Below, piece by piece: positions 2,949-62,751 of a DNA stretch of 64,000 nt. The stretch spans positions 632,383 through 696,382 of the forward strand of contig CBDCDS010000003.1 in the NCBI GenBank assembly GCA_965215365.1. The letters run 5' to 3'. Numbering within the stretch: position 1 is the first letter of the stretch; each line of letters begins with the position of its first letter. A program made the translations under genes and the position numbers. The notes below the pieces were generated by a model. It was not told where the DNA came from, made no database searches, and saw nothing but the letters and a program-made list of their open reading frames with translations. Source of the stretch: Gammaproteobacteria bacterium. Lineage in GTDB: Bacteria; Pseudomonadota; Gammaproteobacteria; Eutrophobiales; Eutrophobiaceae.

Positions 2949-3205
2949 AGGTGGCCATTCAAGCGGATTTATGCCCTTGTGCGGGTGCCGACCAGAGTTT
3001 TTCCAGTTGGTAATAGTCTCTGGTATCGGGGTGCATGACGTGGGCAATGACGTCGCCGAAGTCGATCAGAATCCACTCTGCCTGCTGCCGGCCTTCCACA
3101 CCCAGCGGTCTGATCTGCCGGGCCCGCGCCACCTCTATCACCTTGTCCGCAATGGCCTTGACCTGACGGTCGGAAGCGCCGCTAGCGATGATCATGTAAT
3201 CGGTC
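2901..3205. repeat. 305-bp direct repeat (left copy) flanking the IS1634-like element; identical to 5099-5403
   Basis: Base-for-base identity to 5099-5403 by direct reading. Contains the 3' end of the IS630 fragment and the 3' 78 codons of rsfS. Confidence 0.85.
2959..3195 (-). pseudogene. truncated duplicate of rsfS (C-terminal 78 codons only)
   Basis: Translation is identical to the C-terminus of the full rsfS at 5157-5495. It lies inside the 305-bp direct repeat. Confidence 0.8.
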
Positions 3206-5098: not shown

Positions 5099-5403
5099 AA
5101 CAAAGTAGAAAGATTATGCACAGTTATTTCCGGGACAGCACACTAGAGGTGGCCATTCAAGCGGATTTATGCCCTTGTGCGGGTGCCGACCAGAGTTTTT
5201 CCAGTTGGTAATAGTCTCTGGTATCGGGGTGCATGACGTGGGCAATGACGTCGCCGAAGTCGATCAGAATCCACTCTGCCTGCTGCCGGCCTTCCACACC
5301 CAGCGGTCTGATCTGCCGGGCCCGCGCCACCTCTATCACCTTGTCCGCAATGGCCTTGACCTGACGGTCGGAAGCGCCGCTAGCGATGATCATGTAATCG
5401 GTC
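5099..5403. repeat. 305-bp direct repeat (right copy) flanking the IS1634-like element
   Basis: Identical to 2901-3205. Confidence 0.85.
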
Positions 5404-18467: not shown

Positions 18468-19991
18468 CTACTCGCCCCCCTTACCCTGATCTCTTGTTCT
18501 GATCTGGTTTTTCTTAACCGTTTTATTTTTGAGCGGTTTTTCCACCATGGTGGCGGCGTCTCCCTTGAGTGCTATCTCGATGGCGGCGAGGGGATTGTAG
18601 CCCTTCAGGGTCATAGACTGCAAGTAGCTGGAGATGCGGCAGTAGGTGTCGGCGTAGGCGGTGGTTCGGAAGCAGCCGGAGACTTTTTGTTTGACTTTAG
18701 CCATACGGATATCGCGTTCGGCGCGGTTGTTGGTGAACGGCACGTTGGGGTCGCGGGCGAAGCGGAGGACTTCGGTTTCGTACTTGACGAGGGCATCATG
18801 GAGGTTTTGTGCCTCACATTGGGCAATCCGTCCGCGTTGGCCGGTGAGCCGTTTCGGGGGTGTGGGGAGTTCCCGTTTGGCTTGTGTCAGGATAGTCCGG
18901 TAGCGGGTGCGCAGGGACTGGTAGTCGGTCTCGCTGAGTGCCTTGTTTTTATGTGTGCGCACCTGTCGGCAGGTCTTGAGCAGGAGGCGGCTCATACGTT
19001 GGGCCCAGGCATGGCCGTGGGCGTCCTCGATAAAGGCCAAGTTACGCAACAGGTGACTGCCGCACAGGGCATGCTCGCAGTTGTCATAGGCGAAGTAGCT
19101 GGCCCAGCGGTCGTGCACGAGAACACCGCCGTAGCGGGGGACGATGCCGATGTCCTTGAGGGCGTCCCCGCCCCGCTTGCGGTGGCAGTGTTTCAGTACC
19201 AGGTTCCCGGCACTGGTGCTGTGCAGCCAGTGTTGTGTGCGGTCGATGCGCAAGGAGGTCTCATCGGCGTGCAGCACGGGCTCTGTGAGCAGGCGGGCGA
19301 TAGCCGCCCGCTCCCACCCGGCCAGGGCCTCATGCACCCGCGTGAGCCAGGCCAGTAAGGTCGCCTCGGCGACGGCGCGCCCGGTCAGTGCATGAAGTGT
19401 CTGCGCCGTACGTTTGAGCGAGAGCATTTGGGCCGTTAACAGGTGCGTGGCGAAAGCCACGATGCCAGGGCCGTATTGTAAAGGCCCCGGCATGTCATCG
19501 GGAAACGCCCCGTGGGTCTCAGTGCCACAGCGCGGACAGGTTTTTATCTCGGCGTCAATGGTCAACTCGGTCGTCTCGAAGACTATATCGACCTTGACTC
19601 GTCGCACATGGCCGGTGGGGGCGGTGCCTTTGAGATCATGCCCGCAGGCCCGGCAGCCGGTCACGGGCACCGTGCGGGTCTGAGCCACCACGCGCCGGGA
19701 CGCGCTGGGCACCGTCCCGGTCTGCGGCCCCTTGCCCTGCTTGCCGGGCCGTGTGCGCGCACTGTCATCGGGGTCGGTGCGGGAACTGGGCAGGCTGGAG
19801 TTGTGCGCCCCCTTCGGTGTGGTCTTCTCTAAGAACACCGCCAGCAGCAACTCGAATAGCAGCAACATCGACTCGAACAGCGCACGCCCTTCGGGACTCA
19901 GCGCGCCGTCGGCGCACAACGCCTTAAAACGCATTCGGATGGCCTCGAACTCCGCACGCAATGAGGCCTTGTTCACCGTGGCCATGTGCAC
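18468..19991 (-). CDS. IS66-family transposase (TnpC-type)
   Basis: 507 aa with HADETSLRI, CGSHLLRNL and NNRAERDIRMAKVKQKVSGCFRT, the hallmark IS66 TnpC motifs. Confidence 0.85.
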   Translation of the reverse strand: MHMATVNKASLRAEFEAIRMRFKALCADGALSPEGRALFESMLLLFELLLAVFLEKTTPKGAHNSSLPSSRTDPDDSARTRPGKQGKGPQTGTVPSASRRVVAQTRTVPVTGCRACGHDLKGTAPTGHVRRVKVDIVFETTELTIDAEIKTCPRCGTETHGAFPDDMPGPLQYGPGIVAFATHLLTAQMLSLKRTAQTLHALTGRAVAEATLLAWLTRVHEALAGWERAAIARLLTEPVLHADETSLRIDRTQHWLHSTSAGNLVLKHCHRKRGGDALKDIGIVPRYGGVLVHDRWASYFAYDNCEHALCGSHLLRNLAFIEDAHGHAWAQRMSRLLLKTCRQVRTHKNKALSETDYQSLRTRYRTILTQAKRELPTPPKRLTGQRGRIAQCEAQNLHDALVKYETEVLRFARDPNVPFTNNRAERDIRMAKVKQKVSGCFRTTAYADTYCRISSYLQSMTLKGYNPLAAIEIALKGDAATMVEKPLKNKTVKKNQIRTRDQGKGGE

Positions 19992-25319: not shown

Positions 25320-25385
25320 CACCTCTCACAAACACGAGGTGACTGTGCAGCACAGGGATGTGTTGCCAGTAACTGCAATCATGTC
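25320..25385. repeat. REP-like hairpin (CACCTCTCACAAACACGAGGTG) plus adjacent conserved module
   Basis: The same hairpin recurs at 27971-27992 and, as its complement, at 55985-56006. Confidence 0.7.
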
Positions 25386-25450
25386 AGTGGCCTGTTAAGT
25401 GCCCCTATAGCGGAATCCGTGTATAATACACCAGTTTAAGCCGCCGTGCA

Positions 25451-26014: not shown

Positions 26015-26033
26015 CGAACACGGCACTATTTCT

Positions 26034-26077
26034 GGGAACCTCTAAAAATACCCTCCGTGGTATTTTTAGAGGTTCCC
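26034..26077. repeat. REP-like perfect hairpin GGGAACCTCTAAAAATACC-CTCCGT-GGTATTTTTAGAGGTTCCC
   Basis: 19-bp perfect inverted repeat with a 6-nt loop. Family members are at 31509, 37969, 41221, 45211, 50189, 55794 and 56838. Confidence 0.8.
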
Positions 26078-41255: not shown

Positions 41256-45210
<3,955 letters not shown>

Positions 45211-45285
45211 GGGCGCCTCTAAAAATCAGAGGTGCCTTTACAGCATTATGGATATGCTGCCAGTAACAGCAAGCACGCACCTCAT
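45211..45285. repeat. REP-like hairpin (GGCGCCTCTAAAAATCAGAGGTGCC) plus conserved module immediately after the gyrB stop
   Basis: Member of the same repeat family as 26034 and 55794. Could also serve as a terminator hairpin. Confidence 0.65.
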
Positions 45286-49604: not shown

Positions 49605-50199
49605 TACCGGCGTCGGCAAAACCCGGGTCACGTTGGCGCTGATGGCGGCCTGGCAGGCGCGCGGGTGGGTGGTGAACGGCATGAAGCCGGTTGCCAGCGG
49701 CAGCGAGTGGCGCCACGGGCGTCTGGAAAACGAGGACGCGCGCCTGATTCACGCGCAGTGCAGCCTGCCGGTTAGCTACGAACAGGTGAATCCGTACGCG
49801 TTGGCCGAGCCAATCGCCCCGCATATTGCCGCAACCAAGGCCGGGATCGAGGTTGAACCGGACACCTTGGTTGCGGCCTACCGTTGCCTGACGGCCGGGG
49901 CCGACCGGGTGGTGGTGGAAGGGGTCGGCGGCTGGCGGGTGCCGCTGGCACCGGGGCTACAAACTGAAGATCTGGTGCGGTCTCTGGACCTGGCTGTAGT
50001 GCTGGTGGTCGGGCTGCGTCTGGGCTGCATCAACCATGCTTTACTTACCATGGAGGCCATAAGCGCCGCCGGGGCGCCTTGCGCCGGGTGGCTGGGCAAC
50101 AGCATCTGCCGTGACTATGCCGAGCAGCAGGCCACCCTGGACTATCTGCGCGACCAGCTGCCGGCACCTTGCCTGGGGTTCATTCCGTGGCATTTTTAG
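49576..50199 (+). CDS. bioD: dethiobiotin synthetase
   Basis: P-loop GTDTGVGKT. 207 aa. Confidence 0.85.
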   Translation: MTNIFITGTDTGVGKTRVTLALMAAWQARGWVVNGMKPVASGSEWRHGRLENEDARLIHAQCSLPVSYEQVNPYALAEPIAPHIAATKAGIEVEPDTLVAAYRCLTAGADRVVVEGVGGWRVPLAPGLQTEDLVRSLDLAVVLVVGLRLGCINHALLTMEAISAAGAPCAGWLGNSICRDYAEQQATLDYLRDQLPAPCLGFIPWHF

Positions 50200-50208
50200 A
50201 GGTTCCCG

Positions 50209-53154
50209 TTAATCTATCCCATCAATAAACGTATCAATATATGACATAATCCGGCTGACGATACGCTCGCCAACTGTACGTCTTTCCCGGAGCCTGGGTT
50301 GTTGGTCCATAATCCGGATGACGTCAGCCGGTAAAGGCCTTCTGCTGGTGTACAGGCAATTAGCGATCACCTTGTCTAATCCATCCCGGTCTAGTCCCTC
50401 CTCCGCGCATAGCGACTGCAGGGCTTGTTGCCGTTGTGCTGACAGGTATTGTGCAAACGCGTGGTTAACGTCTCCATTCTGCGGCAGTGTCGGCACCTGT
50501 TCTTCAATGAAGCGTTGTATCAGTTCTTGCTTGCTGCGCAGTTCGGGTTCATTCTCCAACGTGCTGATAATCGCCTGCACCTGTCGGTGGTATGCGTCCG
50601 GTTTGGCTTGGCGCAGTCTGATGACCAGCTCGAGGATGTAGCTGACGTTGATGTTATCTCTGTGGATCAGCTCCACCTCAAAGTCGATATCGTCCAGTAT
50701 GGATACTGTTTCCTTCTGCCGGTCGGTCTTTACCTTGTCGTTCAAATCCAGGTATTTGCTCTTGTAGTCCGCAAAGGTCTGTTGCTCCAGGGCCAGCTCA
50801 GCAAAATCAAATTCGGTGAAGCCAGTCAGTACGTTCATAAGACGCAAGAGATTCCTGAACGCCTTAATAAAGGCAAGCTGCTCTGCCTCCTGTTGTAGTG
50901 TGTCAACACAATCTGGCGTGGCCGCGATGCCAAGCAGCGCCGCCACGGCGTCATTGAACCGTTTAAGGTATGCCTGGTAAGGTTCAAGGGTGATGGTGTC
51001 AACCGCCTCCTTGTCGGCAAACAGCGCGATGGCTTCGTCCGTGGCCGGTTTCAGGTTCCGATAACAGACGACATTGCCGTGTGACTTTTTCGAACCCAGG
51101 ATGCGATTGGTACGGGAGAACGCTTGCACCAGGCCGTGGTATTTCAGGTTTTTGTCCACGTAGATGGTATTGAGCCACTTGCTGTCAAACCCGGTCAGAA
51201 ACATATTCACCACCAGCAGGATATCAATGCCGGCGCCCGTGCGTCGGTTTTTGTCCCGATACCGGACTCGTTTACCGATGTCTCTGTAATAGTCGTAGAA
51301 GGTGTCGGTTTTATAGTTCGTGCCGTACGCCTTGTTGTAATCCCTGATGCAGTGCTCCAGCCGCGCCCGGCTGTGCCGGTCGGTGTACTGGCGGGAACTG
51401 TCGGCGGGATCATCGGCGCCGTAGGCTGCTTCCTGGTCTCGCACCCGGTTCTCATCCTCGGCCCGGCCTGGTACACTCCCCGACCCCGCCGCCATGCCGG
51501 CGAAGTACGTATCGGCAACATCGCTCACCTCGCGGTCTTCCTCATTGGCCTGCCAGGAAAATATGGTTGCTATGTTGAGGTCATGCGTGCCGGCCTCCCG
51601 TTTGCGCCTGAACAGGTCGTAATACTTGAGCAAAGTCCTGATATCGGCAACGCAAAATAGCGCGTTGAACACGCGGCCATGAGTCTTGCCGTCATGGTGG
51701 GCGATGATGTGATCGACGATGGCCTCAAGACGTTCTGCCGCGGCCAGCGCCTCGGCGGTGTCTATCGCCTCCACCCGGATATCCGCCCGGTTGTGCTGCC
51801 GGTCTTTGAAAGTGCCGATATATTCAATGGAAAACCGCAGTACATTCTCATCGTTAATCGCATCCGTGATGACGTACTTGTGCAGACACTCGCCAAACAG
51901 ATCTGTGGTGGTGCGCTTGCCATACTCATTGCCCAGCGCATTCTCGGCAAAGATGGGGGTGCCGGTGAAGCCGAACAGCTGCGCTTTGGGGAAGTGGTCG
52001 CGGATACGCTTATGGGTGTCGCCAAACTGGCTGCGGTGGCATTCGTCAAAAATGAATACCATGCGCTTGTCCCGCAACGGTGTCATGGTGGTTGCATGGC
52101 GGCGCTTGTGAATGGCGTTGTTTAACTTCTGCAAGGTGGTGACAATCAACCTGGTATCATCGCCGAATTGTTCTACCAGCCTGGTGGTATTGTCGGTCCC
52201 GTCAACGCTGCCTTTTTTATAGCTGTTGAAGTCCTGGATGGTCTTGTAGTCCAGATCCTTCCGGTCCACCACGAACACCACCTTGTGGATGCCGGAGGTG
52301 CCGGTGAGGATTTGCGCCGCCTTGAACGACGTCAGTGTTTTGCCGGACCCGGTAGTATGCCAGATATAGCCGAACCGGTCGGAAGTCCTGACCCGCTCGA
52401 CAATCGCCTCCACCGCATGATACTGATACTGGCGCAGCGCCAGCAGCAGCTGGTCGGTTTCGTTCAACACCACGTATTTTGTAACGAGCTTGGACAGCTG
52501 GCACGGCTCCAGGAAAGTATCGGCAAACTCGCTGAGTTGCGTGATACGCCGGTTCTCCCGGTCGGCCCAGAAAAACGTTTGCTTGAAGTCGCGCTGTTTG
52601 ATCGGGTTGTTGGCGTAATATTTGGTATTGACGCCGTTGCTGAGCACAAACACCTGAATGTATTCGAACAACCGCCATCCTGCCGAATAGGAATGACGCT
52701 GGTAACGGTTGGTCTGGTTAAAGGCCTCCTTGAGCGCCAGGCCGCGGCGTTTTAACTCTATCTGTGCCAGCGGCAGGCCATTGATGAGCAAGGTCACGTC
52801 ATAGCGATTCCGGTAGCTGCCCGCCATCTCCAGCTGTTGGGCCACCTGAAACTCGTTCTTGCACCAGTTGATCTGATCGACCAGTTCCAGATACCCGACC
52901 TCGCCGTCGTCCCTGTGGTAGTCCAGCTTGGCCCTGAGCTTTTTGGCTTTGTCGAAGATATTGCCTCCGGAGAGCGCTACCAGGATGTTTTGAAATTCCT
53001 TGTCGGACAGGGTGATGCCGTTGTGCTGCTGCAGTTGTGTTTTCAGGTTGCCGACCAAGTCGTCCTCATTGCGGAGAAGGACATGCTCGTAACCCAGGGC
53101 TTGCAGCTGGACAACCAGTTTCTGTTCCAGAACCGCTTCTGATTGGGTGGCCAT
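50209..53154 (-). CDS. hsdR: type I restriction enzyme R subunit
   Basis: 981 aa with TGSGKT, DECHR and helicase motifs. Confidence 0.9.
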   Translation of the reverse strand: MATQSEAVLEQKLVVQLQALGYEHVLLRNEDDLVGNLKTQLQQHNGITLSDKEFQNILVALSGGNIFDKAKKLRAKLDYHRDDGEVGYLELVDQINWCKNEFQVAQQLEMAGSYRNRYDVTLLINGLPLAQIELKRRGLALKEAFNQTNRYQRHSYSAGWRLFEYIQVFVLSNGVNTKYYANNPIKQRDFKQTFFWADRENRRITQLSEFADTFLEPCQLSKLVTKYVVLNETDQLLLALRQYQYHAVEAIVERVRTSDRFGYIWHTTGSGKTLTSFKAAQILTGTSGIHKVVFVVDRKDLDYKTIQDFNSYKKGSVDGTDNTTRLVEQFGDDTRLIVTTLQKLNNAIHKRRHATTMTPLRDKRMVFIFDECHRSQFGDTHKRIRDHFPKAQLFGFTGTPIFAENALGNEYGKRTTTDLFGECLHKYVITDAINDENVLRFSIEYIGTFKDRQHNRADIRVEAIDTAEALAAAERLEAIVDHIIAHHDGKTHGRVFNALFCVADIRTLLKYYDLFRRKREAGTHDLNIATIFSWQANEEDREVSDVADTYFAGMAAGSGSVPGRAEDENRVRDQEAAYGADDPADSSRQYTDRHSRARLEHCIRDYNKAYGTNYKTDTFYDYYRDIGKRVRYRDKNRRTGAGIDILLVVNMFLTGFDSKWLNTIYVDKNLKYHGLVQAFSRTNRILGSKKSHGNVVCYRNLKPATDEAIALFADKEAVDTITLEPYQAYLKRFNDAVAALLGIAATPDCVDTLQQEAEQLAFIKAFRNLLRLMNVLTGFTEFDFAELALEQQTFADYKSKYLDLNDKVKTDRQKETVSILDDIDFEVELIHRDNINVSYILELVIRLRQAKPDAYHRQVQAIISTLENEPELRSKQELIQRFIEEQVPTLPQNGDVNHAFAQYLSAQRQQALQSLCAEEGLDRDGLDKVIANCLYTSRRPLPADVIRIMDQQPRLRERRTVGERIVSRIMSYIDTFIDGID

Positions 53155-53168
53155 ACAGATGACCCGCG

Positions 53169-54401
53169 TTAAATAAACATTTGCTGCAACAGCCCCTGCT
53201 TGAAGAAGCAGGCCTGTTCGACCTGTTTCGCTACCAGTTCTATTTTCCGGTCGATGGCGGAGAGGAAATTGGCGATTTTTTGTTGTTCACATTTTGAGGG
53301 TATGCTTAATTTGAGGAATCTGAGATGAGAAGCATATAAATGAATAACCGATATTCCCTGCGCCAATCTGGCTATATCAGCCTTCTTATAATTCAAATAA
53401 TACGCAAGAAACACCCCGTTTTCCTGGCAGCGAATTATGTTTATGTCACCTCCCAGCGCAACCCCGTCAAGCCTTACACAAGCGGCGGTTGCTATGTCTG
53501 ATGCAATCTCGCCGGATGAGGGAATAATGACATCGTTTTTGTTGCTCAATTCCAGCTGAGAAGGTGGGATATTAGTGCTCGAAATTACCAGGGAAATTGT
53601 AGTTCCATAGTGGGTGTAGAGTTCCCCATACCTGATACACTTTAATTCTCCATTTGTTACGACATCGCTCTTTGAAATTCCTTTACCCTTACTTATCTTT
53701 GAAATATCACCCAATGATTTCTCCTCCCAATCCGGATAATCCCTCCCATCCTCATCCTTGAACCGAATTTCCTGACTGAACAGTTTTTGCATCATGCCTT
53801 GCTTGTACTGTTCCAGCAGCGACTGCTTCCGGCTCAGTTGCTCAATTTTGATATCAACCGCCGACAGGAAAGCAGCGATTTTTTGTTGTTCTCTTATAGC
53901 CGGAATACATAGTGGGATCTTTTTGATCTCACTCTTGCTTATTTCAAGGAAGGTAGAACCATTTGCTCTACGCAAAAAATGCTTTTTGTTTGCAAGAAGC
54001 CAATAGTAAAGATACTCATTTGAGAACATTGAGTCATTTACAATAAACGACTGAAACCCCTGGTTTGTTGTGCAGACTTCACGAGCAATGCTGACCTCGC
54101 CTATTGTTGCCCTGCTGGTGAATAAAATTGTCCCAACAGGCAGTAAGGCAGCAGAGGATTGAGCAATACCTTCCCTGGTTATTTTGCGGATACTGCCAGT
54201 AGCATATTTCGTCTTGATTTCTGTCGGAGTGAACCAGTTTATATCACCGTCCCATAAGCTCCTCTTGCCAGTGCTGGGGGTGCCACCCCCAACAATATCT
54301 CCGACATGATCCAACTTTTTCATCTCCCAATCCGGATAATCCCCCCCATCCTCATCCTTAAACCGCAACGCCGGCACGCGTTGTTGTTGTGCTGTAATCA
54401 T
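53169..54401 (-). CDS. hsdS: type I restriction-modification S (specificity) subunit
   Basis: 410 aa with two target-recognition domains, each preceded by the conserved repeat RFKDEDG(G/R)DYPDWE. Confidence 0.85.
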   Translation of the reverse strand: MITAQQQRVPALRFKDEDGGDYPDWEMKKLDHVGDIVGGGTPSTGKRSLWDGDINWFTPTEIKTKYATGSIRKITREGIAQSSAALLPVGTILFTSRATIGEVSIAREVCTTNQGFQSFIVNDSMFSNEYLYYWLLANKKHFLRRANGSTFLEISKSEIKKIPLCIPAIREQQKIAAFLSAVDIKIEQLSRKQSLLEQYKQGMMQKLFSQEIRFKDEDGRDYPDWEEKSLGDISKISKGKGISKSDVVTNGELKCIRYGELYTHYGTTISLVISSTNIPPSQLELSNKNDVIIPSSGEIASDIATAACVRLDGVALGGDINIIRCQENGVFLAYYLNYKKADIARLAQGISVIHLYASHLRFLKLSIPSKCEQQKIANFLSAIDRKIELVAKQVEQACFFKQGLLQQMFI

Positions 54402-54659
54402 TCGCTCACGTTAATCAGGACATCGGGCAGGTGGCGCATGGACAGGATTACTCAGAATCAATATGCTCATTATTACGGACGTGATGACAATCAGTGGGCG
54501 CATGATAATTTCAATCATGTTTTTCCTCTGATGATCGGGCTAACGCTGAAATCGCTGCCATTATGGCGAATGGGATTGCGATATGCAAATCTACCATCCC
54601 TTTGATTTTCAGGCCGGTAACGGTATAGTAAATCTACCCTCAATAAGCATTAAAGAGAT

Positions 54660-55043
54660 ATGAACCTGCATGTGACTATTCCTGAGAGCAAGGCGTTGGC
54701 GGCTTTTTGCCTAGAGAACGGTATCATAAAGCTGGCTGTTTTCGGCTCAGCCCTGCGCGAGGATTTCAACGCGGAAAGTGATATTGACCTGTTGGTCAAG
54801 TTCAGGCCTGAGGCCGCTGCTGACTTGTTCAAAATGGCTGGAATTGAAATTGCCCTTTCTCCATTGTTTGGCGGACGCAGTATCGACCTGCGCACGCTGG
54901 AGGAGCTGAGTCCCTACATCAGAGGTAGAGTACTTAACGACGCAATATTACTGGTAGATATTGCTGCGTCGGAAGACGAAGGGAGTAAAGTAAGGCATGA
55001 CCATTCCAGCGCGGCCGATGTGATAACCCATGTCCATCATTGA
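54660..55043 (+). CDS. MNT-domain nucleotidyltransferase (MntA-like antitoxin of a HEPN/MNT pair)
   Basis: GSALRED...SDIDLLV (GSx10DxD nucleotidyltransferase motif). Confidence 0.75.
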   Translation: MNLHVTIPESKALAAFCLENGIIKLAVFGSALREDFNAESDIDLLVKFRPEAAADLFKMAGIEIALSPLFGGRSIDLRTLEELSPYIRGRVLNDAILLVDIAASEDEGSKVRHDHSSAADVITHVHH

Positions 55044-55413
55044 TGACAATACCCGGTTACGGCACATGCTGGACGCAGGATGTGAAGCTATTGAAATGAG
55101 TAAGGGTAAAAGTCGAAATGATTTGGCCAATGATCGTAAGCTGTCCTTAGCATTGGTGAAGCTTTTGGAGACTGTTGGAGAGGCTGCGTATAAGGTGTCA
55201 CAGGAAAAAAGACTTGAACTTGATCAAATTGAGTTTGAAAAGATCATCAAAATGCGTCATCGGCTTGTCCACGACTATTTCGACATTAACTACGGCGTTA
55301 TCTGGAATACGATACAAAATAGCCTGCCTGAATTGGTGAGGCAACTTCAAGAGCTGCCCGAATGCAGCAATGATATGGTGCCTGCCTCATCGATGCCTTT
55401 AGATAAATGGTAG
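55030..55413 (+). CDS. HEPN-domain protein (HepT-like toxin)
   Basis: RHRLVHDY (the Rx4-6H HEPN motif). Overlaps the MNT gene by 14 bp. Confidence 0.7.
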   Translation: MSIIDDNTRLRHMLDAGCEAIEMSKGKSRNDLANDRKLSLALVKLLETVGEAAYKVSQEKRLELDQIEFEKIIKMRHRLVHDYFDINYGVIWNTIQNSLPELVRQLQELPECSNDMVPASSMPLDKW

Positions 55414-55454
55414 TGGAGACACCTGTGAGTCCTGGTTGCGCTCCCCGGTCATAC

Positions 55455-55612
55455 CGACTATCAGGTGGCATTGCGGGAAATAGAAACCCTGATGACGGCC
55501 CGGCCGGATTCGCCCGAGGGTGGAAAACTGGATGTGTTGACGACACTGGTCGAAGCATACGAGCGCAGGCATTATCCTCTGGAGCTACCCGATAATGAAC
55601 TGCCGCGCTAGC
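55455..55612 (+). pseudogene. HigA-like antitoxin N-terminal fragment (about 90% nt identity to 56494-56640)
   Basis: Encodes ...[46 protein letters not shown] then an immediate stop. The HTH domain is missing. Confidence 0.7.
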
Positions 55613-55793
55613 GCTGTTCGCAGTCCAGCAGATAATCATCTACCGCTTCCTTGAAGGCCTGTTCAAGTTGTTCTACGTTTTGACCTTCATAGCTGACCAG
55701 CGGTTCAATAAATTCCAACTTCCCGAAAAGACAATTATCCTCTATGCTGGCTTGTACGGAACCGTAAAAGCCCTTGTAACTGAATAAACTCAT
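55608..55793 (-). pseudogene. truncated hicB (first 60 codons only, identical to 57611-57790)
   Basis: Identical N-terminus to the full hicB. It diverges and stops at the junction with the higA fragment. Confidence 0.7.
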
Positions 55794-56014
55794 GGGAACC
55801 TCTAAAAATACCCTCCGTGGTATTTTTGCTGTGTAAATTTTGAAGATTTACATACTGGCGGGGTGTGCAGCGCTCTGATCATGAGGGTTTAGAGACGGAA
55901 ACGAAAAAGTATGATTTTTCGTTTCCTTCATTTTCAAGCACTTACGTGCTTGCTGTTACTGGCAGCACATCCCTGTGCTGCACGGGCGCCTCGTGTTTGT
56001 GAGAGGCACCCTCA
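55794..56014. repeat. full-length composite REP-like element (about 220 bp) made of several hairpin modules
   Basis: Contains all hairpin modules seen individually elsewhere (26034, 37969-38118, 25320, 45211). Confidence 0.75.
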
Positions 56015-56145
56015 TAACATTTTCGCTCGAATAAGATGGTCTGAATTATGATGTGGCACAACCTTATTTGCAACTACAAATGAGTTACTGTTGTAATTTC
56101 CGGTATCGCTGGTTAGAATAGTCCCGATTTAGGACATATTGGATT

Positions 56146-56448
56146 ATGAGAATTATTGCGCTCTCCACACTAAAGCAGTTCTGGGAGCGGAATGTTGCAT
56201 ACATGGATGCTGCGGAGCCGGTCCGGGTCTGGTATCGGCGCGTGTTACGGGCTGATTGGGCGTCTCCTTCTGACGTCAAACGGGATTTTGGCAATGCCAG
56301 CATCCTGAAGGATGGACGGGTGGTGTTTAACATAGCAGGCAACAAGTATCGATTGGTGGTATGGATCAATTACGCCTACCGTGTGGTTTACATAAGGTTT
56401 ATCGGTACCCATAACCAATATAACCAAATCGATGCACAGGCGATTTAA
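56146..56448 (+). CDS. higB: HigB-family toxin (RelE/ParE superfamily)
   Basis: 100 aa with VVFNIAGNKYRLVVWINYAYRVVYIRFIGTH. Directly upstream of an XRE-type HigA. Confidence 0.75.
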   Translation: MRIIALSTLKQFWERNVAYMDAAEPVRVWYRRVLRADWASPSDVKRDFGNASILKDGRVVFNIAGNKYRLVVWINYAYRVVYIRFIGTHNQYNQIDAQAI

Positions 56449-56451
56449 TCC

Positions 56452-56838
56452 TTGGAAAAACAGTTGATGGATGTCAAACCTATCAGAACAGATACCGACT
56501 ACCAGGCGGCACTGCGGGAAATAGAAACCCTGATGACGGCCCGGCTGGATTCGCCCGAGGGTGAAAAACTGGATGTGTTGACGACACTGGTTGAAGCGTA
56601 TGAACGCAAGCATTATCCTTTGGAGATGCCCGATGCGATAGCGGCTATCAGATTTGAAATGGAACAACAGGGATTGAAGGCAAAAGACTTGGAACCGATG
56701 ATTGGGAAGCGAAACCGCGTTTATGAAGTGTTGAACGGGAAACGTTCCCTCACGCTGAAAATGATCTGGCGTCTGCATGAGCAGTTGGGCATCCCCGCCG
56801 AATCGTTGATTAAGCAGCCTTCCCGGCCTGGTAATTAA
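56452..56838 (+). CDS. higA: HigA-family antitoxin (XRE helix-turn-helix)
   Basis: 128 aa with a C-terminal HTH (KDLEPMIGKRNRVYEVLNGKRSLTLKMIWRLHEQLGI). Confidence 0.75.
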   Translation: MEKQLMDVKPIRTDTDYQAALREIETLMTARLDSPEGEKLDVLTTLVEAYERKHYPLEMPDAIAAIRFEMEQQGLKAKDLEPMIGKRNRVYEVLNGKRSLTLKMIWRLHEQLGIPAESLIKQPSRPGN

Positions 56839-56872
56839 AGGCCACCTCTAAAAAATTAGAGGTGGCCGTGCA

Positions 56873-57434
56873 GCAGTACCCTCAGCGTCAACCCCGATAA
56901 AATTGCCCAGGCACAACGCTGGGACGGCCGGCACGGCGTCATCACCAACCTGCCGACATCCACCGACACGACCGCCATCTTAAGCCAGTACCGCGGCCTG
57001 TGGCAGGTCGAAGACACCTTCCGGGTAAGTAAACACGACCTCAAGGTCAGACCCATCTACCACTGGACCCCCCGACGCATCGAAGCGCACATCGCCATCG
57101 CCTTTATGTCCCTGCTCTGTGTCCGACACCTGCAATACCGCATGACCCTGCAAGCCAAGCCCGCATCCCCCGAAGTCATCCGCAACGCGCTGGCCCACGT
57201 GCAGCACAGTGTCCTGACACATCAACAGACACACCGCCGCTACGTGATTCCCTCCGCCATCAGTGAAACCGCCCGGCGCCTCTACAAAATCATGGGGTTA
57301 AGTCACTCCACTACCCCCTACGAGCTCAAATAGCCGGTCGCTGAGAACGCCGAAACAAGGCAATTGTAGTGCCTACGGGTCAACGCGCCTTCAATAAAAT
57401 CAATCAGTTAGTGAAATAAACCGTCGAAGTCGGG
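56873..57434 (+). mobile_element. truncated copy (3' 562 bp including the right IR) of the IS1634-like element
   Basis: About 97% identical to 4538-5098. The 5' truncation point abuts a REP hairpin at 56838-56870. Confidence 0.8.
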
Positions 57435-57454
57435 AGAATGATCCGGCCAACGCG

Positions 57455-57790
57455 CTAGCGCTGTTCTACGGCTCGTTCAATGGACAGCTTGACGAATTCG
57501 TTCAGGTTGAGATTGTTTTCTTTTGCGGTGATGAGCGCATGCCTGTGCAATTCCGGGCTGATACGCACATTAAATGAGCCTCTGCATGGCTTGGCAGGCT
57601 CCCTGCCAAGCTGTTCACAGTCCAGCAGATAATCATCTACCGCTTCCTTGAAGGCCTGTTCAAGTTGTTCTACGTTTTGACCTTCATAGCTGACCAACGG
57701 TTCAATAAATTCCAACTTCCCGAAAAGACAATTATCCTCTATGCTGGCTTGTACGGAACCGTAAAAGCCCTTGTAACTGAATAAACTCAT
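57455..57790 (-). CDS. hicB: HicB-family antitoxin with a C-terminal ribbon-helix-helix
   Basis: 111 aa. N-terminus MSLFSYKGFYGSVQASIEDNCLFGKLEFI is HicB-like. The C-terminus is CopG/RHH-like. Confidence 0.75.
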   Translation of the reverse strand: MSLFSYKGFYGSVQASIEDNCLFGKLEFIEPLVSYEGQNVEQLEQAFKEAVDDYLLDCEQLGREPAKPCRGSFNVRISPELHRHALITAKENNLNLNEFVKLSIERAVEQR

Positions 57791-58035
57791 AACATTTTCG
57801 CTCGAGTCAGTTTGTTTACGACCAATTTGATTGCATATCGTTTCAGCTCGTTGTCAGGGTGCGGGCGATGCAAGTTGATTGTATCGTCCGGGTTGCCATT
57901 ATCGAATTTCACCCTTGAGCCGTCCCCCTTAATCTCCTTGTAGTCCAGTGCTTTCAATAACGTTACCAGTTCATTCCAGGTAACAGCCTGCCTGCCATGC
58001 AGCAATTTAGCTTTCAATTTATCACGCTTTCCCAT
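57787..58035 (-). CDS. hicA: HicA-family mRNA interferase toxin (start at MGKRDK; ORF track extends it to 58071)
   Basis: LLKALDYKEIKGDGSRVKF...NLHRPHP are HicA/YcfA motifs. 4-bp overlap with hicB. Confidence 0.7.
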   Translation of the reverse strand: MGKRDKLKAKLLHGRQAVTWNELVTLLKALDYKEIKGDGSRVKFDNGNPDDTINLHRPHPDNELKRYAIKLVVNKLTRAKML

Positions 58036-58148
58036 GGCCTGAATTATGATGTAGCAAAGCCTTATTTGCAACTATAAATCAGTTACAAGACCCAGTAAGC
58101 CTCGGGAAATAATCGAGCGGAGGATCGGGTCAGAACCGAGCCAACCGG

Positions 58149-59738
58149 TTAAAACGGGCTGTCTATCCCCAGTTCCCGGCAGTATCCTGCGATAGTACCA
58201 TCTGTTGCCTGCATAGCTTGCTCCAGGGTTTTCAGTTGTTTGGACACGGCGGTGATATCAACCGGCTCCTCTTCCTCAAAAGTATCCACGTAGCGTGGAA
58301 TGTTCAGGTTGAAGTCGTTCTCCCTGACCTGGCCTAAAGTGGCGACACTGGCATACTTGTCGATGGCTTCACGGTTTTTGTAAGACTCAATGATCCGGTC
58401 CACATGCGCATCGGTCAGCACATTCTGGTTGCCCGCCTTGTCATAATGCTGTGAGGCGTCGATAAAGAGGATATGGTCATCCTGTTTGCGGCATTTTTTC
58501 AGTACCAGGATACAGGTTGGGATACCGGTGCCATAAAACAAATTGGCCGGCAGGCCGATGACAGCATCGAGATAGTTCAGTTGTTCAATGATATAGCGCC
58601 GGATTGTGCCTTCCGCCGCGCCTCGGAACAGTACGCCGTGTGGCAGCACCACGGCCATGGCGCCGTGCTCTGCAAGCTGGTAAATCATGTGCTGCACAAA
58701 GGCGAAATCAGCTTTGCCTTGCGGCGCCAGTTTACCGTATTGGCTGAAACGTTCATCGTGCGCGTGCAGCGGATTGCTGTCGCCTCGCCACTTGGCGGAA
58801 AACGGTGGGTTGGCAACCACCGCCTCAAAGCGCATATCCTGGTGCTGAGGTTTGTCCAGGGTATCCTCCTGACGGATGTCAAACCGGTCAAAATGCACGC
58901 CATGGAGGATCATGTTCATGCGCGCCAGGTTGTAGGTGGTGCGGTTGAGTTCCTGTCCGTACAGCTCAATCAGGACCTCATCACCCGCCCGGGCTTGTGC
59001 TCTGGCCTCCTTTTCGATGCGCAGCAGCAGTGAGCCGGAACCACAAGTGGGGTCATAGGCATTGCGGATGCGCTCCCGGCCTGAGGTGACGAGCCTGGCA
59101 AGTATCTTCGACACCTGTTGCGGCGTATAGAATTCCCCGGCCTTCTTGCCGGCGCCGGATGCAAACTGACCGATCAGGTATTCATAGGCGTCGCCCAGAA
59201 TGTCTGCATTGGCTTGCTCAGGGCCGAAATCGATACGGTTCAGATTCGCCATGATGTTAACGACCAGTTTATTGCGGTCATCGACCTCCCGACCCAGCTT
59301 GCTGCTGTCTAGGTTCAGGTCTTCAAACAGGTTGTTGAAATCGTCGGCGCTGCCCGTTTGACTGGCGGAGGCCTCGATGTTTTTGAAGATCGCTTTCAGA
59401 TCGCCGATGATATGGGTGTCCCGTTCCTCAGCGGCCCCCTGGCCTTTCGCTATGACTGCGGAAAATGTCTCATCAGGTGCCAGAAAATAGCCCAGCCGTT
59501 GCAGCGATTCATCCTTGATGGCCGCAATATCCTCGGCATCTGTGACCTGGTAATAATCCTTTACCTCCTCGGTTTCCAGCAGTTCATTGGCTAACGCATA
59601 TTGCCTTTCCGACAGATATTTGTAGAAAATGAACCCGAGGATGTAATCCTTGAACTCATCTGCATCCATCTTGCCGCGCAGGTCATTGGCGATATTCCAG
59701 AGTTGTCTTTCCAGCGCTTGCTTCTGTGCTGCTGTCAT
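58149..59738 (-). CDS. hsdM: type I restriction-modification methyltransferase subunit
   Basis: 529 aa with NPPF motif IV and N6-adenine MTase motif I. HsdM N-terminal domain. Confidence 0.9.
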   Translation of the reverse strand: MTAAQKQALERQLWNIANDLRGKMDADEFKDYILGFIFYKYLSERQYALANELLETEEVKDYYQVTDAEDIAAIKDESLQRLGYFLAPDETFSAVIAKGQGAAEERDTHIIGDLKAIFKNIEASASQTGSADDFNNLFEDLNLDSSKLGREVDDRNKLVVNIMANLNRIDFGPEQANADILGDAYEYLIGQFASGAGKKAGEFYTPQQVSKILARLVTSGRERIRNAYDPTCGSGSLLLRIEKEARAQARAGDEVLIELYGQELNRTTYNLARMNMILHGVHFDRFDIRQEDTLDKPQHQDMRFEAVVANPPFSAKWRGDSNPLHAHDERFSQYGKLAPQGKADFAFVQHMIYQLAEHGAMAVVLPHGVLFRGAAEGTIRRYIIEQLNYLDAVIGLPANLFYGTGIPTCILVLKKCRKQDDHILFIDASQHYDKAGNQNVLTDAHVDRIIESYKNREAIDKYASVATLGQVRENDFNLNIPRYVDTFEEEEPVDITAVSKQLKTLEQAMQATDGTIAGYCRELGIDSPF

Positions 59739-59863
59739 GGTGGTAATGTCGTTGGTTTTAAGCTGTAAAGGAAGTCGTGAAAGGGGTTGGAAACAGGGAT
59801 GCCGACATCACTTTTTGTGGCGGCATAGTCAGGTTGTCTCGCAATCTGGCTGTCAAGAAGGCA

Positions 59864-60166
59864 TCAGGCAGCTTGCCGCCTTGGTTTCACTTGCTTGACA
59901 ATATCCTTGCCCGATTTGAGTTCGACTACCCGCAGTTCGTAGGTTTTCTGTAAGTTCAGCCAAACTTGCGGGGTTGTATTAAAATAGCGGGCGAGCCGCA
60001 GCGCCGTGTCGGCAGTAATGCCCCGCCGGCCTCTCAAAATATCCGAGATACGGTTTTGCGGCACGCCCAACTCACGAGCAACCGCCTTGGCTGACATGCC
60101 CAACTCCGCTAATTCTTCACACAAAATCTCACCAGGGTGCACCGCTTGCATACCATTATTTGTCAT
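59864..60166 (-). CDS. higA: HigA-family antitoxin (XRE HTH)
   Basis: 100 aa with the [26 protein letters not shown]. Downstream of higB. Confidence 0.8.
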   Translation of the reverse strand: MTNNGMQAVHPGEILCEELAELGMSAKAVARELGVPQNRISDILRGRRGITADTALRLARYFNTTPQVWLNLQKTYELRVVELKSGKDIVKQVKPRRQAA

Positions 60167-60179
60167 ATCTTCACACTCG

Positions 60180-60458
60180 TCAGTGATAATCTACTATTTC
60201 AACATCGTAGGGACCATCGTCTTCCCAACGAAAACAAATTCGCCAGCGTCGGTTGATGCGGATACTGTACTGTCCAGCCCGGTTGCCGGATAACGATTCC
60301 AGCCGATTACTTCGCAGGCCCGCTAAATCCCGCAATGATTCCGCGTTGTCCAAAAATGTCAACCGCCGCGTTGCCTGAGCAGCAAACCCCTGAAAAGTGT
60401 TCGTTCGCTGACCACTGAAAAACCGTTCCGTTTTTGAATCCTTGAAACTACGAATCAT
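60180..60458 (-). CDS. higB: HigB-family toxin ('plasmid maintenance system killer', RelE/ParE fold)
   Basis: 92 aa with YSIRINRRWRICFRWEDDGPYDVEIVDYH, the conserved C-terminal signature. Confidence 0.8.
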   Translation of the reverse strand: MIRSFKDSKTERFFSGQRTNTFQGFAAQATRRLTFLDNAESLRDLAGLRSNRLESLSGNRAGQYSIRINRRWRICFRWEDDGPYDVEIVDYH

Positions 60459-60469
60459 AGGCTGGAATT

Positions 60470-62494
60470 ATGACAGACAATACGGGATATGTATATGCTA
60501 TTATCAACATACAAGCAGTTTACGCATTATCCTCTGGAGCTACCCGATGCGGTAAAGGTGCATCGCAGCGTCGCCCCTTCTTTGCTACAATTCCAGCCCT
60601 GATGATATCAAGCGACCAGAAATATGATGTAATTGTTGTCGGTGGCGGCCATGCCGGGACTGAGGCGGCGCTGGCCGCGGCGCGCATGGGCGCCAGTACT
60701 CTGTTGTTGACTCACAGTATCGATACCCTGGGGCAGATGTCGTGCAACCCGGCCATCGGCGGCATCGGCAAGGGGCACCTGGTGAAGGAGCTCGATGCCC
60801 TGGGCGGGGTCATGGCCGGGGCTGCGGATCGCAGCGGGATACAGTTTCGCACTCTCAACGCGCGCAAGGGGCCGGCGGTGCGCGCCACCCGGGCGCAGAT
60901 TGACCGCAGCCTGTACAAAGGGGTCATCCGCCCGCTGCTGGAGGGCGCAGATAACCTGCACCTGTTCCAGCAACCCGTGGACGACCTGGTGCTTGCGGGC
61001 GAGCGCGTCACCGGCGTGGTAACCCAGGCCGGGTTGCGCTTCTGCGCTCCTTGCGTGGTGTTGACCGTAGGCACCTTCCTGGCCGGGCAGATTCACATGG
61101 GCGAGTCCGGCTACCAGGGCGGACGCGCCGGCGAGCCGCCGGCAAACACCCTGGCGCAACGTCTGCGCGACCTGCCGTTGCGCACTGGGCGGCTGAAGAC
61201 CGGCACCCCGCCGCGCATCGACGGGCGCAGCATTGACTACAGCCGTCTCACCGAACAGCCGGGCGATGAGCCGCTACCGGTGTTCTCATTCATGGGCACG
61301 GCGGCGCAACACCCGCGTCAGGTTTCCTGCCACATCACCCATACCAACGAGCGCACCCACGACATCATTCGCGCCGGCCTGGACCGCTCGCCCATGTACA
61401 GCGGCAGGATTGACAGCGTCGGGCCGCGCTATTGCCCGTCGGTGGAAGACAAGGTCGTGCGCTTTGCCGACCGTACTTCCCACCAGATCTTTATCGAACC
61501 GGAGGGATTGACCACGACGGAAGTGTATCCGAACGGTATTTCCACCAGCCTGCCCTACGATGTGCAACATGAGCTGGTGCGCTCGATCAAAGGCTTTGAG
61601 CAGGCCCGCATTACCCGCCCCGGGTATGCCATTGAGTACGATTATTTCGACCCGCGCGACCTGCACCCGTGGCTGGAGACCAAGGCCGTCGCCGGGCTGT
61701 TTTTTGCAGGGCAGATCAACGGCACCACCGGCTACGAGGAGGCAGCCTGTCAGGGACTGGTGGCCGGCATCAACGCGGCGCTACGGAGCCAACAGCGCGA
61801 CCCTTGGAGCCCGCGCCGTGATCAAGCCTACATCGGCGTACTCATCGACGATTTGACCACCCGCGGCGTCACCGAGCCTTACCGCATGTTCACCAGCCGG
61901 GCGGAATACCGCCTGTTGCTGCGGGAAGATAACGCCGACCTGCGCCTGACTGAAACCGGTCGTGAACTGGGCCTGGTGGATGATGCGCGTTGGCGCAGTT
62001 TCGAGGCCAAGCGCGCGGCTATTGATACGGAACAACAGCGCCTCGCTGCCACTCGTCTGGCTGCGGATACCCTGCCCGCAGACATTACCGCAGACACCCT
62101 CGGACAACCCTTGCGCAAGGACGTCAGCCTGTTGCAACTGTTACGCCGTCCCGGTATCGGCTATGCCGAGCTGGCCCGCCTGCCCGGGTTTGAGCCCGCC
62201 GACATAACGCCGCAAGTAGCCGCACAGGTGGAAGTGCAGGCCAAGTACCACGGCTATATCGAGCGCCAGCAGCAGGAGATTGCCCGCAACCGCCGCGACG
62301 AACAGGCGCGCCTGCCCGAGCACATCGACTATCTTGGAGTCACCGGCCTGTCCAACGAAGTGGCGCAGACACTCTCGACACAACGGCCCGATACCCTGGG
62401 CCAGGCCTCCCGCATCCCCGGCGTAACCCCCGCGGCCGTGTCCCTGTTGCGGGTGTACCTGAAGAAGCGCTCCCTGTTGAAGCAGGCTTGCTGA
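60470..62494 (+). CDS. mnmG: tRNA uridine-5-carboxymethylaminomethyl modification enzyme MnmG (GidA); true start about 60602 ([19 protein letters not shown])
   Basis: FAD-binding [10 protein letters not shown] with high overall MnmG identity. The 5' extension of the ORF contains a higA-like fragment and is not part of the gene. Confidence 0.9.
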
Positions 62495-62613
62495 GGTCGG
62501 GCAGCGGCTGCCAAGCCCCCGTAGTAGCCGCAGGGAACCATCTGAAAGTGCCCGCAGTGGCATTTTCAGGAGTGGCCTGTACCTCTTTCCGCCCAGTCCT
62601 GACTTGTTGAATA

Positions 62614-62751
62614 CGTTGTATTGCTATCGCTGAACTCGTTACAATTCTATCGCTGTATGCGTTACAATTCTATCGCTGAACTCGTTGCATTTCTATCGCT
62701 ATGTGCGTTACAATTCTATCGCTGTATGCGTTACAATTCTATCGCTGATTA
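62614..62751. repeat. 23-bp direct tandem repeat x6 (consensus CGTTACAATTCTATCGCTGNANN)
   Basis: Six consecutive 23-bp units read directly from the sequence between mnmG and the downstream ATPase gene. Confidence 0.8.

Follow-up and report, generated by a model that had tools for sequence, protein, structure and literature searches.

Toxin-antitoxin cassettes within a split type I restriction-modification locus of a gammaproteobacterium, and their variation among three lineages

A stretch of 64,000 nucleotides from a Gammaproteobacteria bacterium of the family Eutrophobiaceae (GenBank assembly GCA_965215365.1, contig CBDCDS010000003.1, positions 632,383 to 696,382), here called the window, carries a type I restriction-modification (R-M) operon in which hsdM is separated from hsdS and hsdR by 3747 bp. 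This interval is occupied by a mosaic of toxin-antitoxin (TA) cassettes and their remnants, as a preliminary description of the same DNA had proposed, and the content of the mosaic varies among three lineages. The reading favoured here, with a probability of roughly three in four, is that of a variable island in which an intact type IC-like R-M system is accompanied by self-contained, probably selfish TA cassettes that turn over. The cassettes, each running from its own promoter to a stop codon, would have accumulated where hsdM meets hsdS and, on either side, outside the hsd genes. Five processes would account for the turnover: insertion at various points, deletion between short repeats (in hicB, hicA and higA), hits by repetitive extragenic palindromic (REP) and insertion sequence (IS) elements, allele replacement such as that of the HsdS recognition domain, and transfer between species.

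Contents of the island

Profile searches and a listing of the open reading frames (ORFs) placed every feature of the preliminary description at, or within a few bases of, the position it had given. The TA-like ORFs all passed the profile searches, and four intact pairs were confirmed: MntA/HepT, HigBA of the E. coli K-12 type (HigBA1), HicAB, and HigBA of the Rts1 type (HigBA2). The low guanine-plus-cytosine content reported for the block at 50.2-60.5 kb also held, at 0.42-0.58 against 0.62-0.67 outside. The R-M genes and intact pairs are the following, in window positions.

50209-53154, minus strand: hsdR, 981 aa, intact; type IC-like, with an EcoR124_C C-terminal domain
53169-54401, minus strand: hsdS, 410 aa, two target-recognition domains; 14 bp from hsdR
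54660-55043, plus strand: MntA-type nucleotidyltransferase antitoxin (MNT); NTP_transf_2/Polbeta, GS...DxD motif FGSALREDFNAESDIDL
55030-55413, plus strand: HepT-type HEPN RNase toxin; PF01934, E 3e-19, Rx4H motif RHRLVH
56090-56841, plus strand: higBA1 cassette from promoter to stop, 752 bp
56146-56448, plus strand: HigB1; PF09907, E 3e-30
56452/56467-56838, plus strand: HigA1; HTH_3, 128 aa
57455-57790, minus strand: HicB; PF05534, 111 aa
57787-58035, minus strand: HicA; PF07927, 82 aa
58149-59738, minus strand: hsdM, 529 aa, intact; 3747 bp upstream of hsdS
59773-60522, minus strand: higBA2 cassette, on the strand of hsdM and directly upstream of it
59864-60166, minus strand: HigA2; TIGR02607, E 6e-29, 99.7 bits (cut-off 47.7)
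60180-60458, minus strand: HigB2; PF05015, E 2e-14, 54.6 bits (cut-off 27)

First, the R-M genes are complete. HsdM matches N6_Mtase (E 2e-111) and HsdM_N and has the motifs DPTCGSGS and NPPF, HsdS matches Methylase_S in two stretches (E 3e-50), and HsdR carries HSDR_N, SWI2_SNF2/ResIII, T1R_D3 and EcoR124_C (Pfam profile search, E 1e-39 to 6e-63). The PADLOC models call the three proteins, all full length, as type I restriction endonuclease (REase_I for HsdR, E 7e-300), specificity subunit and methyltransferase. An N6-adenine methyltransferase, a two-domain HsdS and a complete HsdR are thus encoded by three full-length genes, which keep the hsdM-hsdS-hsdR order on one strand. In type I systems, HsdM2S1 methylates host DNA, and HsdR joins it to form an ATP-driven translocating nuclease that cuts unmethylated DNA. 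Here, HsdM and HsdS would likewise make up the methyltransferase, and the addition of HsdR would yield the nuclease acting on unmethylated incoming DNA. A survey covered 160 loci with HsdM relatives of 52-70% identity, in which HsdS and HsdR were located. The gene order was always M-S-R, so the split in the window is an insertion into the operon. Scans of genomes and metagenomes with HsdM gave no relative above 70% identity; for this reason, the nearest unsplit ancestor of the R-M system could not be identified.

Second, the four TA pairs have the organisation of their families. In these families, HepT, HigB and HicA are RNases restrained by partner proteins. The MntA/HepT pair would be a HEPN RNase neutralised by a nucleotidyltransferase, HicAB an mRNA interferase, and the two unrelated HigBA pairs ribosome-dependent mRNA nucleases. 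MNT and HepT are encoded by adjacent genes overlapping by 14 nt, with Pfam scores above the gathering cut-offs and with the GSx(9-13)DxD and Rx4-6H motifs of type VII pairs. HigBA1 has the PF09907 toxin gene first, then the helix-turn-helix (HTH) antitoxin gene after 3 nt, as in the E. coli K-12 type. HicA lies upstream of HicB with a 4-nt overlap, and the two score 40.1 and 59.2 bits, both over the cut-off. In HigBA2, the PF05015 toxin gene is upstream of that for the TIGR02607 HigA antitoxin, as in the Rts1/Vibrio type. Searches of PDB sequences with HicA and HepT returned chance matches only. From their sequences, the pairs are predicted to be active toxins.

Third, the island holds three or four wrecked cassettes together with REP and IS elements.

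55451-55593, plus strand: higA pseudogene fragment, N-terminal part only; 91% identical to higA1 56492-56634
55608-55793, minus strand: hicB remnant, 61 aa, with its own stop codon; 99% identical to 57610-57790
55794-56010: composite REP element of several hairpin modules, 217 nt; absent from the close relative described below; CTCAT duplication at its flanks
56011-56088, minus strand: hicA remnant, last ~10 codons plus promoter/leader; 218 nt of coding sequence deleted
56840-56867: hairpin of the same REP family, perfect 12-bp stem (GGCCACCTCTAAAAAATTAGAGGTGGCC), terminator-like
56860-57435, plus strand: IS1634-family 3' fragment, 576 nt; right inverted repeat kept, transposase truncated
60524-60556, plus strand: third higA remnant, 25 nt identical to 55569-55593; inside a spurious N-terminal extension of mnmG
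21825, 26039-26072, 31514, 37973, 45216, 50193, 55799 and 56845: REP copies with the core CCTCTAAAAA

The hicB fragment had been described as joined tail-to-tail to a higA fragment. No single deletion fuses the two: hicB ends at its own stop codon and has lost 150 nt in frame between two GCTGTTC repeats, and with them the DNA-binding HicB domain. The hicB and hicA remnants together are a decayed hicAB cassette beside a separate higA fragment, in which neither the HTH domain nor any Pfam match was found. Gene conversion between intact hicB and its remnant was considered; the 99% identity of the two is inseparable from neutral divergence (local pS, the synonymous divergence per site, ~0.045), the remnant being 96% identical to its counterpart in the close relative. 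The IS fragment matches, at 94% identity, the 3' terminus of the complete IS1634-family element that lies at 3204-5099. Copies of the REP composite are present in the window at 37964-38119, 26033-26067, 25322-25389 and 45207-45277. They belong to a genome-specific REP family of simple hairpins and multi-hairpin composites, whose core occurs in 9 copies per 64 kb against 0.03 expected. Because the 217-nt composite is a recent insertion with a CTCAT duplication, this family appears to be mobile. Three of these 9 copies lie inside the island, an enrichment that, taken alone, is not statistically notable.

The island in three lineages

Look-ups of exact proteins gave contigs only with HigB1, HigB2, HepT and a HigB1 variant; those with HsdM, BioD, HicB, the 123-aa HigA1 and HicA found no match. 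A close relative, a 370-kb metagenome contig (L001) found with HigB1, is 98.5-99.1% identical to the window. It keeps the split hsd arrangement but differs in five ways. It is without the REP composite, and 23 nt replace window positions 56843-58114, that is, the hairpin, the IS fragment and hicAB. The C-terminal recognition domain of its HsdS, a protein of 390 instead of 410 aa, is unrelated (L001 7426-7769 against window 53289-53692). A ribbon-helix-helix (RHH)/PemK pair, MazEF-like and absent from the window, stands beside the 3' end of hsdR (L001 3758-4332) and represents a fifth TA family at the locus. Finally, a Peptidase_M90 gene takes the place of bioD as left neighbour. An unrelated recognition domain in a strain that is ~99% identical predicts different restriction specificities.

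Divergence from this strain is uneven. MNT, HepT and higA2 are identical and mnmG has a pS of 0.004, against 0.04-0.05 for hsdR and hsdM; the segments of the island thus differ in age and form a mosaic. The ratio of nonsynonymous to synonymous divergence (pN/pS) is 0.19 for hsdR and 0.13 for hsdM, values that point to purifying selection on both genes. Together with the swapped HsdS domain, they fit a working R-M system, which is inferred to be active.

A sister species, with core genes 88-90% identical, is represented by contigs L082-L085 and L167-L176, including one of 3.5 Mb. Read from the Peptidase_M90 side, it has an RTX protease gene, MNT with a HepT of only 67 aa, an 89-nt piece of the hsdM 3' end, a REP element, a 182-aa orphan ORF, higBA1, an 80-nt internal hsdM piece, higBA2, an 85-nt higA piece, a 138-aa orphan ORF and mnmG. 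The 85-nt piece is a higA 5' end at the same place as the third higA remnant of the window. Between Peptidase_M90 and mnmG there is no hsdS and no hsdR, and the two pieces are all that is found of hsdM. The three cassettes (MNT, higBA1 and higBA2), by contrast, are 96-99% identical to those of the window: 97.6% over the 752-bp higBA1 unit and 96% over the higBA2 cassette, with an identical HigB2 protein. The TA genes are 97-99% identical (pS 0.01-0.07) and thus far closer than mnmG (88.4%), so the island was shared between the lineages well after their split. For MNT, higB1, higA1 and higB2, pN/pS is 0-0.25; the hsdM fragments are 90-91% identical, near the neutral rate of the cassettes. Selection has thus kept most TA genes, and one lineage then lost the R-M genes.

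The edges of the shared cassettes are informative as well. The left edge of MNT-HepT lies at 54593, and higBA1 has the same ends (56090-56841) in both species. The latter cassette lies beyond the hsdM 3' end in the window and between the two hsdM fragments in the sister species, which means that it was placed at least twice, or moved. The arrangement is thus neither identical nor fixed across the three lineages, and the earlier suggestion of a hotspot with variable cassette content is borne out by the gaps, the HsdS domain and the RHH/PemK pair of the close relative and by HepT and hsdM of the sister species. These lineages form a natural series of three states, namely an intact split R-M system, the variant of a near-identical strain and an R-M-less relic in the sister species. 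The series shows small TA cassettes colonising a restriction locus, decaying within it and outlasting it.

Some further observations concern the sister species. Its orphan ORFs (L167 9345-9893 and 11743-12159, also in L082-L085 and L168-L176) vary in length between contigs; that of 182/174 aa has no Pfam or NCBIfam match, and that of 138/121 aa has in Pfam only one weak, sub-threshold match to DUF6185. Just past parB and beside a REP composite, a type II-like R-M pair (RE_AccI with an Eco57I-type N6 methylase, L167 18502-20303) constitutes another defence locus near the origin.

The borders of the island are marked by two features.

50186-50207: REP half-site at the bioD|hsdR junction (TCCGTGGCATTTTTAGAGGTTCCC), encoding the last five codons of bioD; left synteny breakpoint against L001
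60604-62494, plus strand: mnmG (gidA), conserved right flank; start taken from the 630-aa gene call of the sister species

The island had been placed between bioD and mnmG. Homology to the close relative begins exactly at 50209, and the left neighbour in both other lineages is the Peptidase_M90 gene, which lies at 1738-2553 in the window; the bioD border is therefore specific to this genome. The conserved site is the interval from Peptidase_M90 to mnmG. The locus would be a variable chromosomal island near the replication origin, upstream of mnmG-gidB-parAB, with Peptidase_M90 as its ancestral left border. Only in this genome does a 47.7-kb core block (leuS, recF, ResB, gyrB and bioBFCD; window 2517-50208) stand between Peptidase_M90 and hsdR. 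One of its ends is near the IS1634 copy at 3204-5099 and the other is on the REP half-site, and an IS66-family transposase gene (18468-19991) lies within it. Since Peptidase_M90 and the hsdR site are near neighbours in the other two lineages, a large translocation or a double rearrangement took place here. At 2610-2698, an 89-nt remnant is 92% identical to the gene of the sister species for an 1123-aa RTX/serralysin-like protease (L167 4456-7827), which has been deleted from this genome.

On the right side, a 674-aa mnmG ORF, the form called in L001, starts 44 codons early and runs through the higA remnant (window 60470-60603). Against L001, mnmG shows ~10 nonsynonymous and only 2 synonymous changes (pN/pS ~2), which is odd for a housekeeping gene; this excess may reflect consensus errors of the metagenome or a small recombination patch. 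The part of mnmG beside the island was also checked for a recombined tract, but the gradient of identity there tracks domain conservation and is uninformative. Just downstream of mnmG, two tandem units of ~70 nt (62608-62748) likewise recur in tandem in L001 and in the sister lineage; next comes an AAA_14/DUF4143 gene, inserted between mnmG and gidB.

Turnover, expression and rival explanations

Several points weigh against the favoured reading. MntA and HepT score 40.4 and 32.1 bits, under the NCBIfam equivalog cut-off of 60 bits; they are members of the superfamily, not equivalogs of the characterised pair. Canonical HicA has its catalytic histidine within a GSH motif. The HicA of the window is without it, its subfamily (this protein and 17 homologues) having an invariant GSR...LHRPHP, and the replacement of GSH by GSR makes its activity uncertain. 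Between the window and the sister species, higA2 has a pN/pS of ~1, a value from 4-5 differences only. The order of the insertion events is not polarisable from three lineages without more genomes. No recombinase, tRNA or attachment (att) site accounts for the movement of the cassettes. Lastly, consensus scans found no consensus-like promoter between higA2 and hsdM.

With regard to expression, the scans found promoter-like sites upstream of every cassette and of hsdS.

54402-54659: divergent intergenic region hsdS/MNT, with promoter-like sites for hsdS (minus strand, 54589-54560) and MNT (plus strand, 54602-54629)
56073-56045, 58071-58043 and 60495-60467, minus strand: promoter-like sites of the hicA remnant, hicAB and higBA2

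From the site in the hsdS/MNT spacer, hsdS-hsdR would be expressed. Four of the six intact genes between hsdM and hsdS are on the strand opposite the hsd genes, and these antisense cassettes, together with the terminator-like hairpin at 56840-56867, make a transcript from hsdM to hsdS unlikely. It is thus plausible, as proposed earlier, that hsdM is transcriptionally uncoupled from hsdS-hsdR. As there is also no consensus-like terminator between higA2 and hsdM, hsdM may be read through from higB2-higA2; it is probably expressed either alone or by such read-through. As a lesser possibility, HigA2 may even control hsdM, the two genes being on the same strand, 125 nt apart, with no evident promoter or terminator between them. 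If this is true, methylase supply would be tied to TA autoregulation.

How the cassettes spread is a separate question. The TA pairs may move as promoter-to-stop cassettes of ~750 bp, between positions and between species, with no recombinase of their own, though this is rather unlikely. Like the ends of higBA1, the cassette edges just upstream of the promoters of MNT-HepT and higBA2 are sharp, and each of the three island copies of the CCTCTAAAAA REP family coincides exactly with a junction at which the ~99% identical strain differs; the traffic could be driven by REP-associated recombination or by short-homology capture. The hallmarks of an integrative island were not found: the ORFs include no integrase, and 45-64 kb holds no tRNA. 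The TA gene copies account for all long direct repeats in the island, and an Rfam scan of the island found no family. Two short repeats came into question as att-like scars. The one at 55569-55593 and 60524-60548 may be better read as the leftover of a further higA copy, and a ~26-29-nt stretch between higA1 and hsdM of L001, similar to the MNT 3' end, as a leftover of MNT.

Among the rival explanations, the one that survives best, unlikely as it is, takes the locus for an integrated, multi-layer defence. The embedded TA pairs would be selected as abortive-infection backups against phages that inactivate or evade the R-M system, in the manner of PrrC with EcoprrI, and their position in the operon would be functional. 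Embedded genes are indeed frequent in the related hsdM loci. The gap between hsdM and hsdS exceeds 500 bp in 33 of 125 loci (26%; maximum 3722 bp) and that between hsdS and hsdR in 58 of 82 (71%; maximum 5243 bp). Abi, nuclease or Fic genes make up most of the inserts; among the 100 embedded ORFs in the first set of relatives are Abi_2, AbiEii, PD-(D/E)XK, RhuM, Fic/DOC, GIY-YIG, KAP NTPase, Shedu, reverse-transcriptase and integrase genes. The literature on DarTG2, PrrC and HEPN toxins within type I loci points the same way, as do the matches of MNT to the PADLOC candidate family PDC-S09 and of HigB1 to PD-Lambda-2_A. However, MNT/HepT and HicAB are absent from all 160 related loci, and HigBA from their M-S and S-R gaps. 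Moreover, 91 of the 100 embedded ORFs of relatives are on the hsd strand, against four of six antisense genes here. The cassettes also persist in a lineage without the R-M system, three wrecked cassettes lie beside the intact ones, and both HigBA2 and the RHH/PemK pair of the close relative are outside the operon. An abortive-infection backup role for the TA pairs is possible, but they most likely behave as selfish addiction modules. The label 'defence island' goes beyond the evidence: apart from the R-M system, PADLOC finds here only the candidate family PDC-S09 for MNT and a partial resemblance to PD-lambda-2.

The preliminary description also held that the TA cassettes may stabilise the R-M system, with loss of the locus freeing stable toxins and killing segregants. 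As the pairs flank and interrupt the hsd genes, any large deletion would remove antitoxin genes, and a similar proposal for tvrAT of the pneumococcal tvr locus has been put to the test. The sister species contradicts this view, having lost the hsd genes and kept the TA cassettes: hsdM was removed by small deletions that spared higBA1 and higBA2, hsdS and hsdR are absent, and HepT itself is truncated. The experiments on tvrAT showed no addiction effect either. Stabilisation is thus quite improbable, and the case speaks against a widely made assumption, namely that defence genes are safeguarded from loss by TA pairs next to them.

Nor does it seem probable, to about the same low degree, that the block is a decaying junkyard in which the split has killed the R-M system and which is headed for loss. 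It is true that 3.7 kb hold three cassette remnants together with a piece of an IS element and an inserted REP, the sister lineage displays what would be the end state, and no clear promoter of hsdM was found. Yet none of the three hsd reading frames is shortened or lacks a domain, pN/pS is 0.13-0.19 over a pS of ~0.045 against the close relative, the split is common to both strains, and exchange of the HsdS recognition domain between strains ~99% identical would not be expected unless specificity matters. Purifying selection on the hsd genes is thus compatible with a large hsdM-hsdS gap that holds antisense cassettes. A chimeric join made in assembly is hardly credible: the region has several repeats of 140-580 nt (two hicB, two higA, IS and REP), but the order hsdR-hsdS-MNT-HepT-higA'-hicB'-higBA1-hsdM-higA2-mnmG recurs in the independent 370-kb contig, and parts of it in more than 10 contigs of the sister species.

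Relation to known systems

Type I loci frequently hold embedded genes, and PrrC is almost exclusive to them (Payne et al., 2024). A catalogue of 2013 already listed HEPN toxins within R-M operons as well as PrrC in a type Ic system. As in EcoprrI-PrrC, a type IC-like locus is interrupted in the window by the gene of an RNA-targeting HEPN toxin, the shared idea being that of a suicide RNase behind a restriction barrier. PrrC differs in being a single ABC-ATPase-HEPN protein silenced by binding to the R-M enzyme. HepT has its own MntA antitoxin, lies in the opposite orientation and is accompanied by three other, unrelated TA pairs, and no link to the Hsd proteins is seen from the genes.

DarTG2, in the RptR-regulated island of enteropathogenic E. 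coli, is likewise a whole TA pair embedded in a type I R-M operon. Its authors regarded the site as a possible recombination hotspot, and a small HTH gene comes first in that island. DarTG2 lies between hsdS and hsdR, in the orientation of the operon and under one promoter; the insert described here is between hsdM and hsdS, on mixed strands, and consists of several cassettes, each with a promoter-like site. In the pneumococcal tvr locus (SpnIV), the TA-like pair tvrAT, homologous to phd-doc, stands between hsdM and hsdR, and a stabilising role was proposed for it; in experiments, the pair behaved as a regulator, without an addiction effect. A tyrosine recombinase is encoded in the tvr locus and hsdS segments are shuffled there, whereas neither a recombinase nor spare hsdS segments occur here.

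Resemblance to PD-lambda-2 is partial. HigB1 matches PD-Lambda-2_A over its full length (E 2e-34), and HigA1 matches positions 1-122 of PD-Lambda-2_B. That system consists of a HigB-like gene, a HigA-peptidase fusion and a third, P4-antitoxin-like gene required for defence. Membership was rejected, as HigA1 has 128 aa against a 402-position profile and no peptidase domain, and there is no third gene; higBA1 is best regarded as an ordinary HigBA pair.

Finally, the rule of 'guilt-by-embedding', established with sets of genes from type I R-M, BREX and DISARM loci (Payne et al., 2024; PADLOC PDC families), was confirmed for this HsdM family, with the difference that in the window small type II/VII TA pairs and their remnants take the place of larger Abi or nuclease genes. 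The locus adds no new mechanism, since embedded toxins in type I loci are already established (PrrC, DarTG2, the HEPN families and 'guilt-by-embedding'). Embedding is normal for this HsdM family; what is unusual is an M-S insert at the top of the size range, the antisense orientation of four of its six intact genes, and its content of classical small TA pairs.

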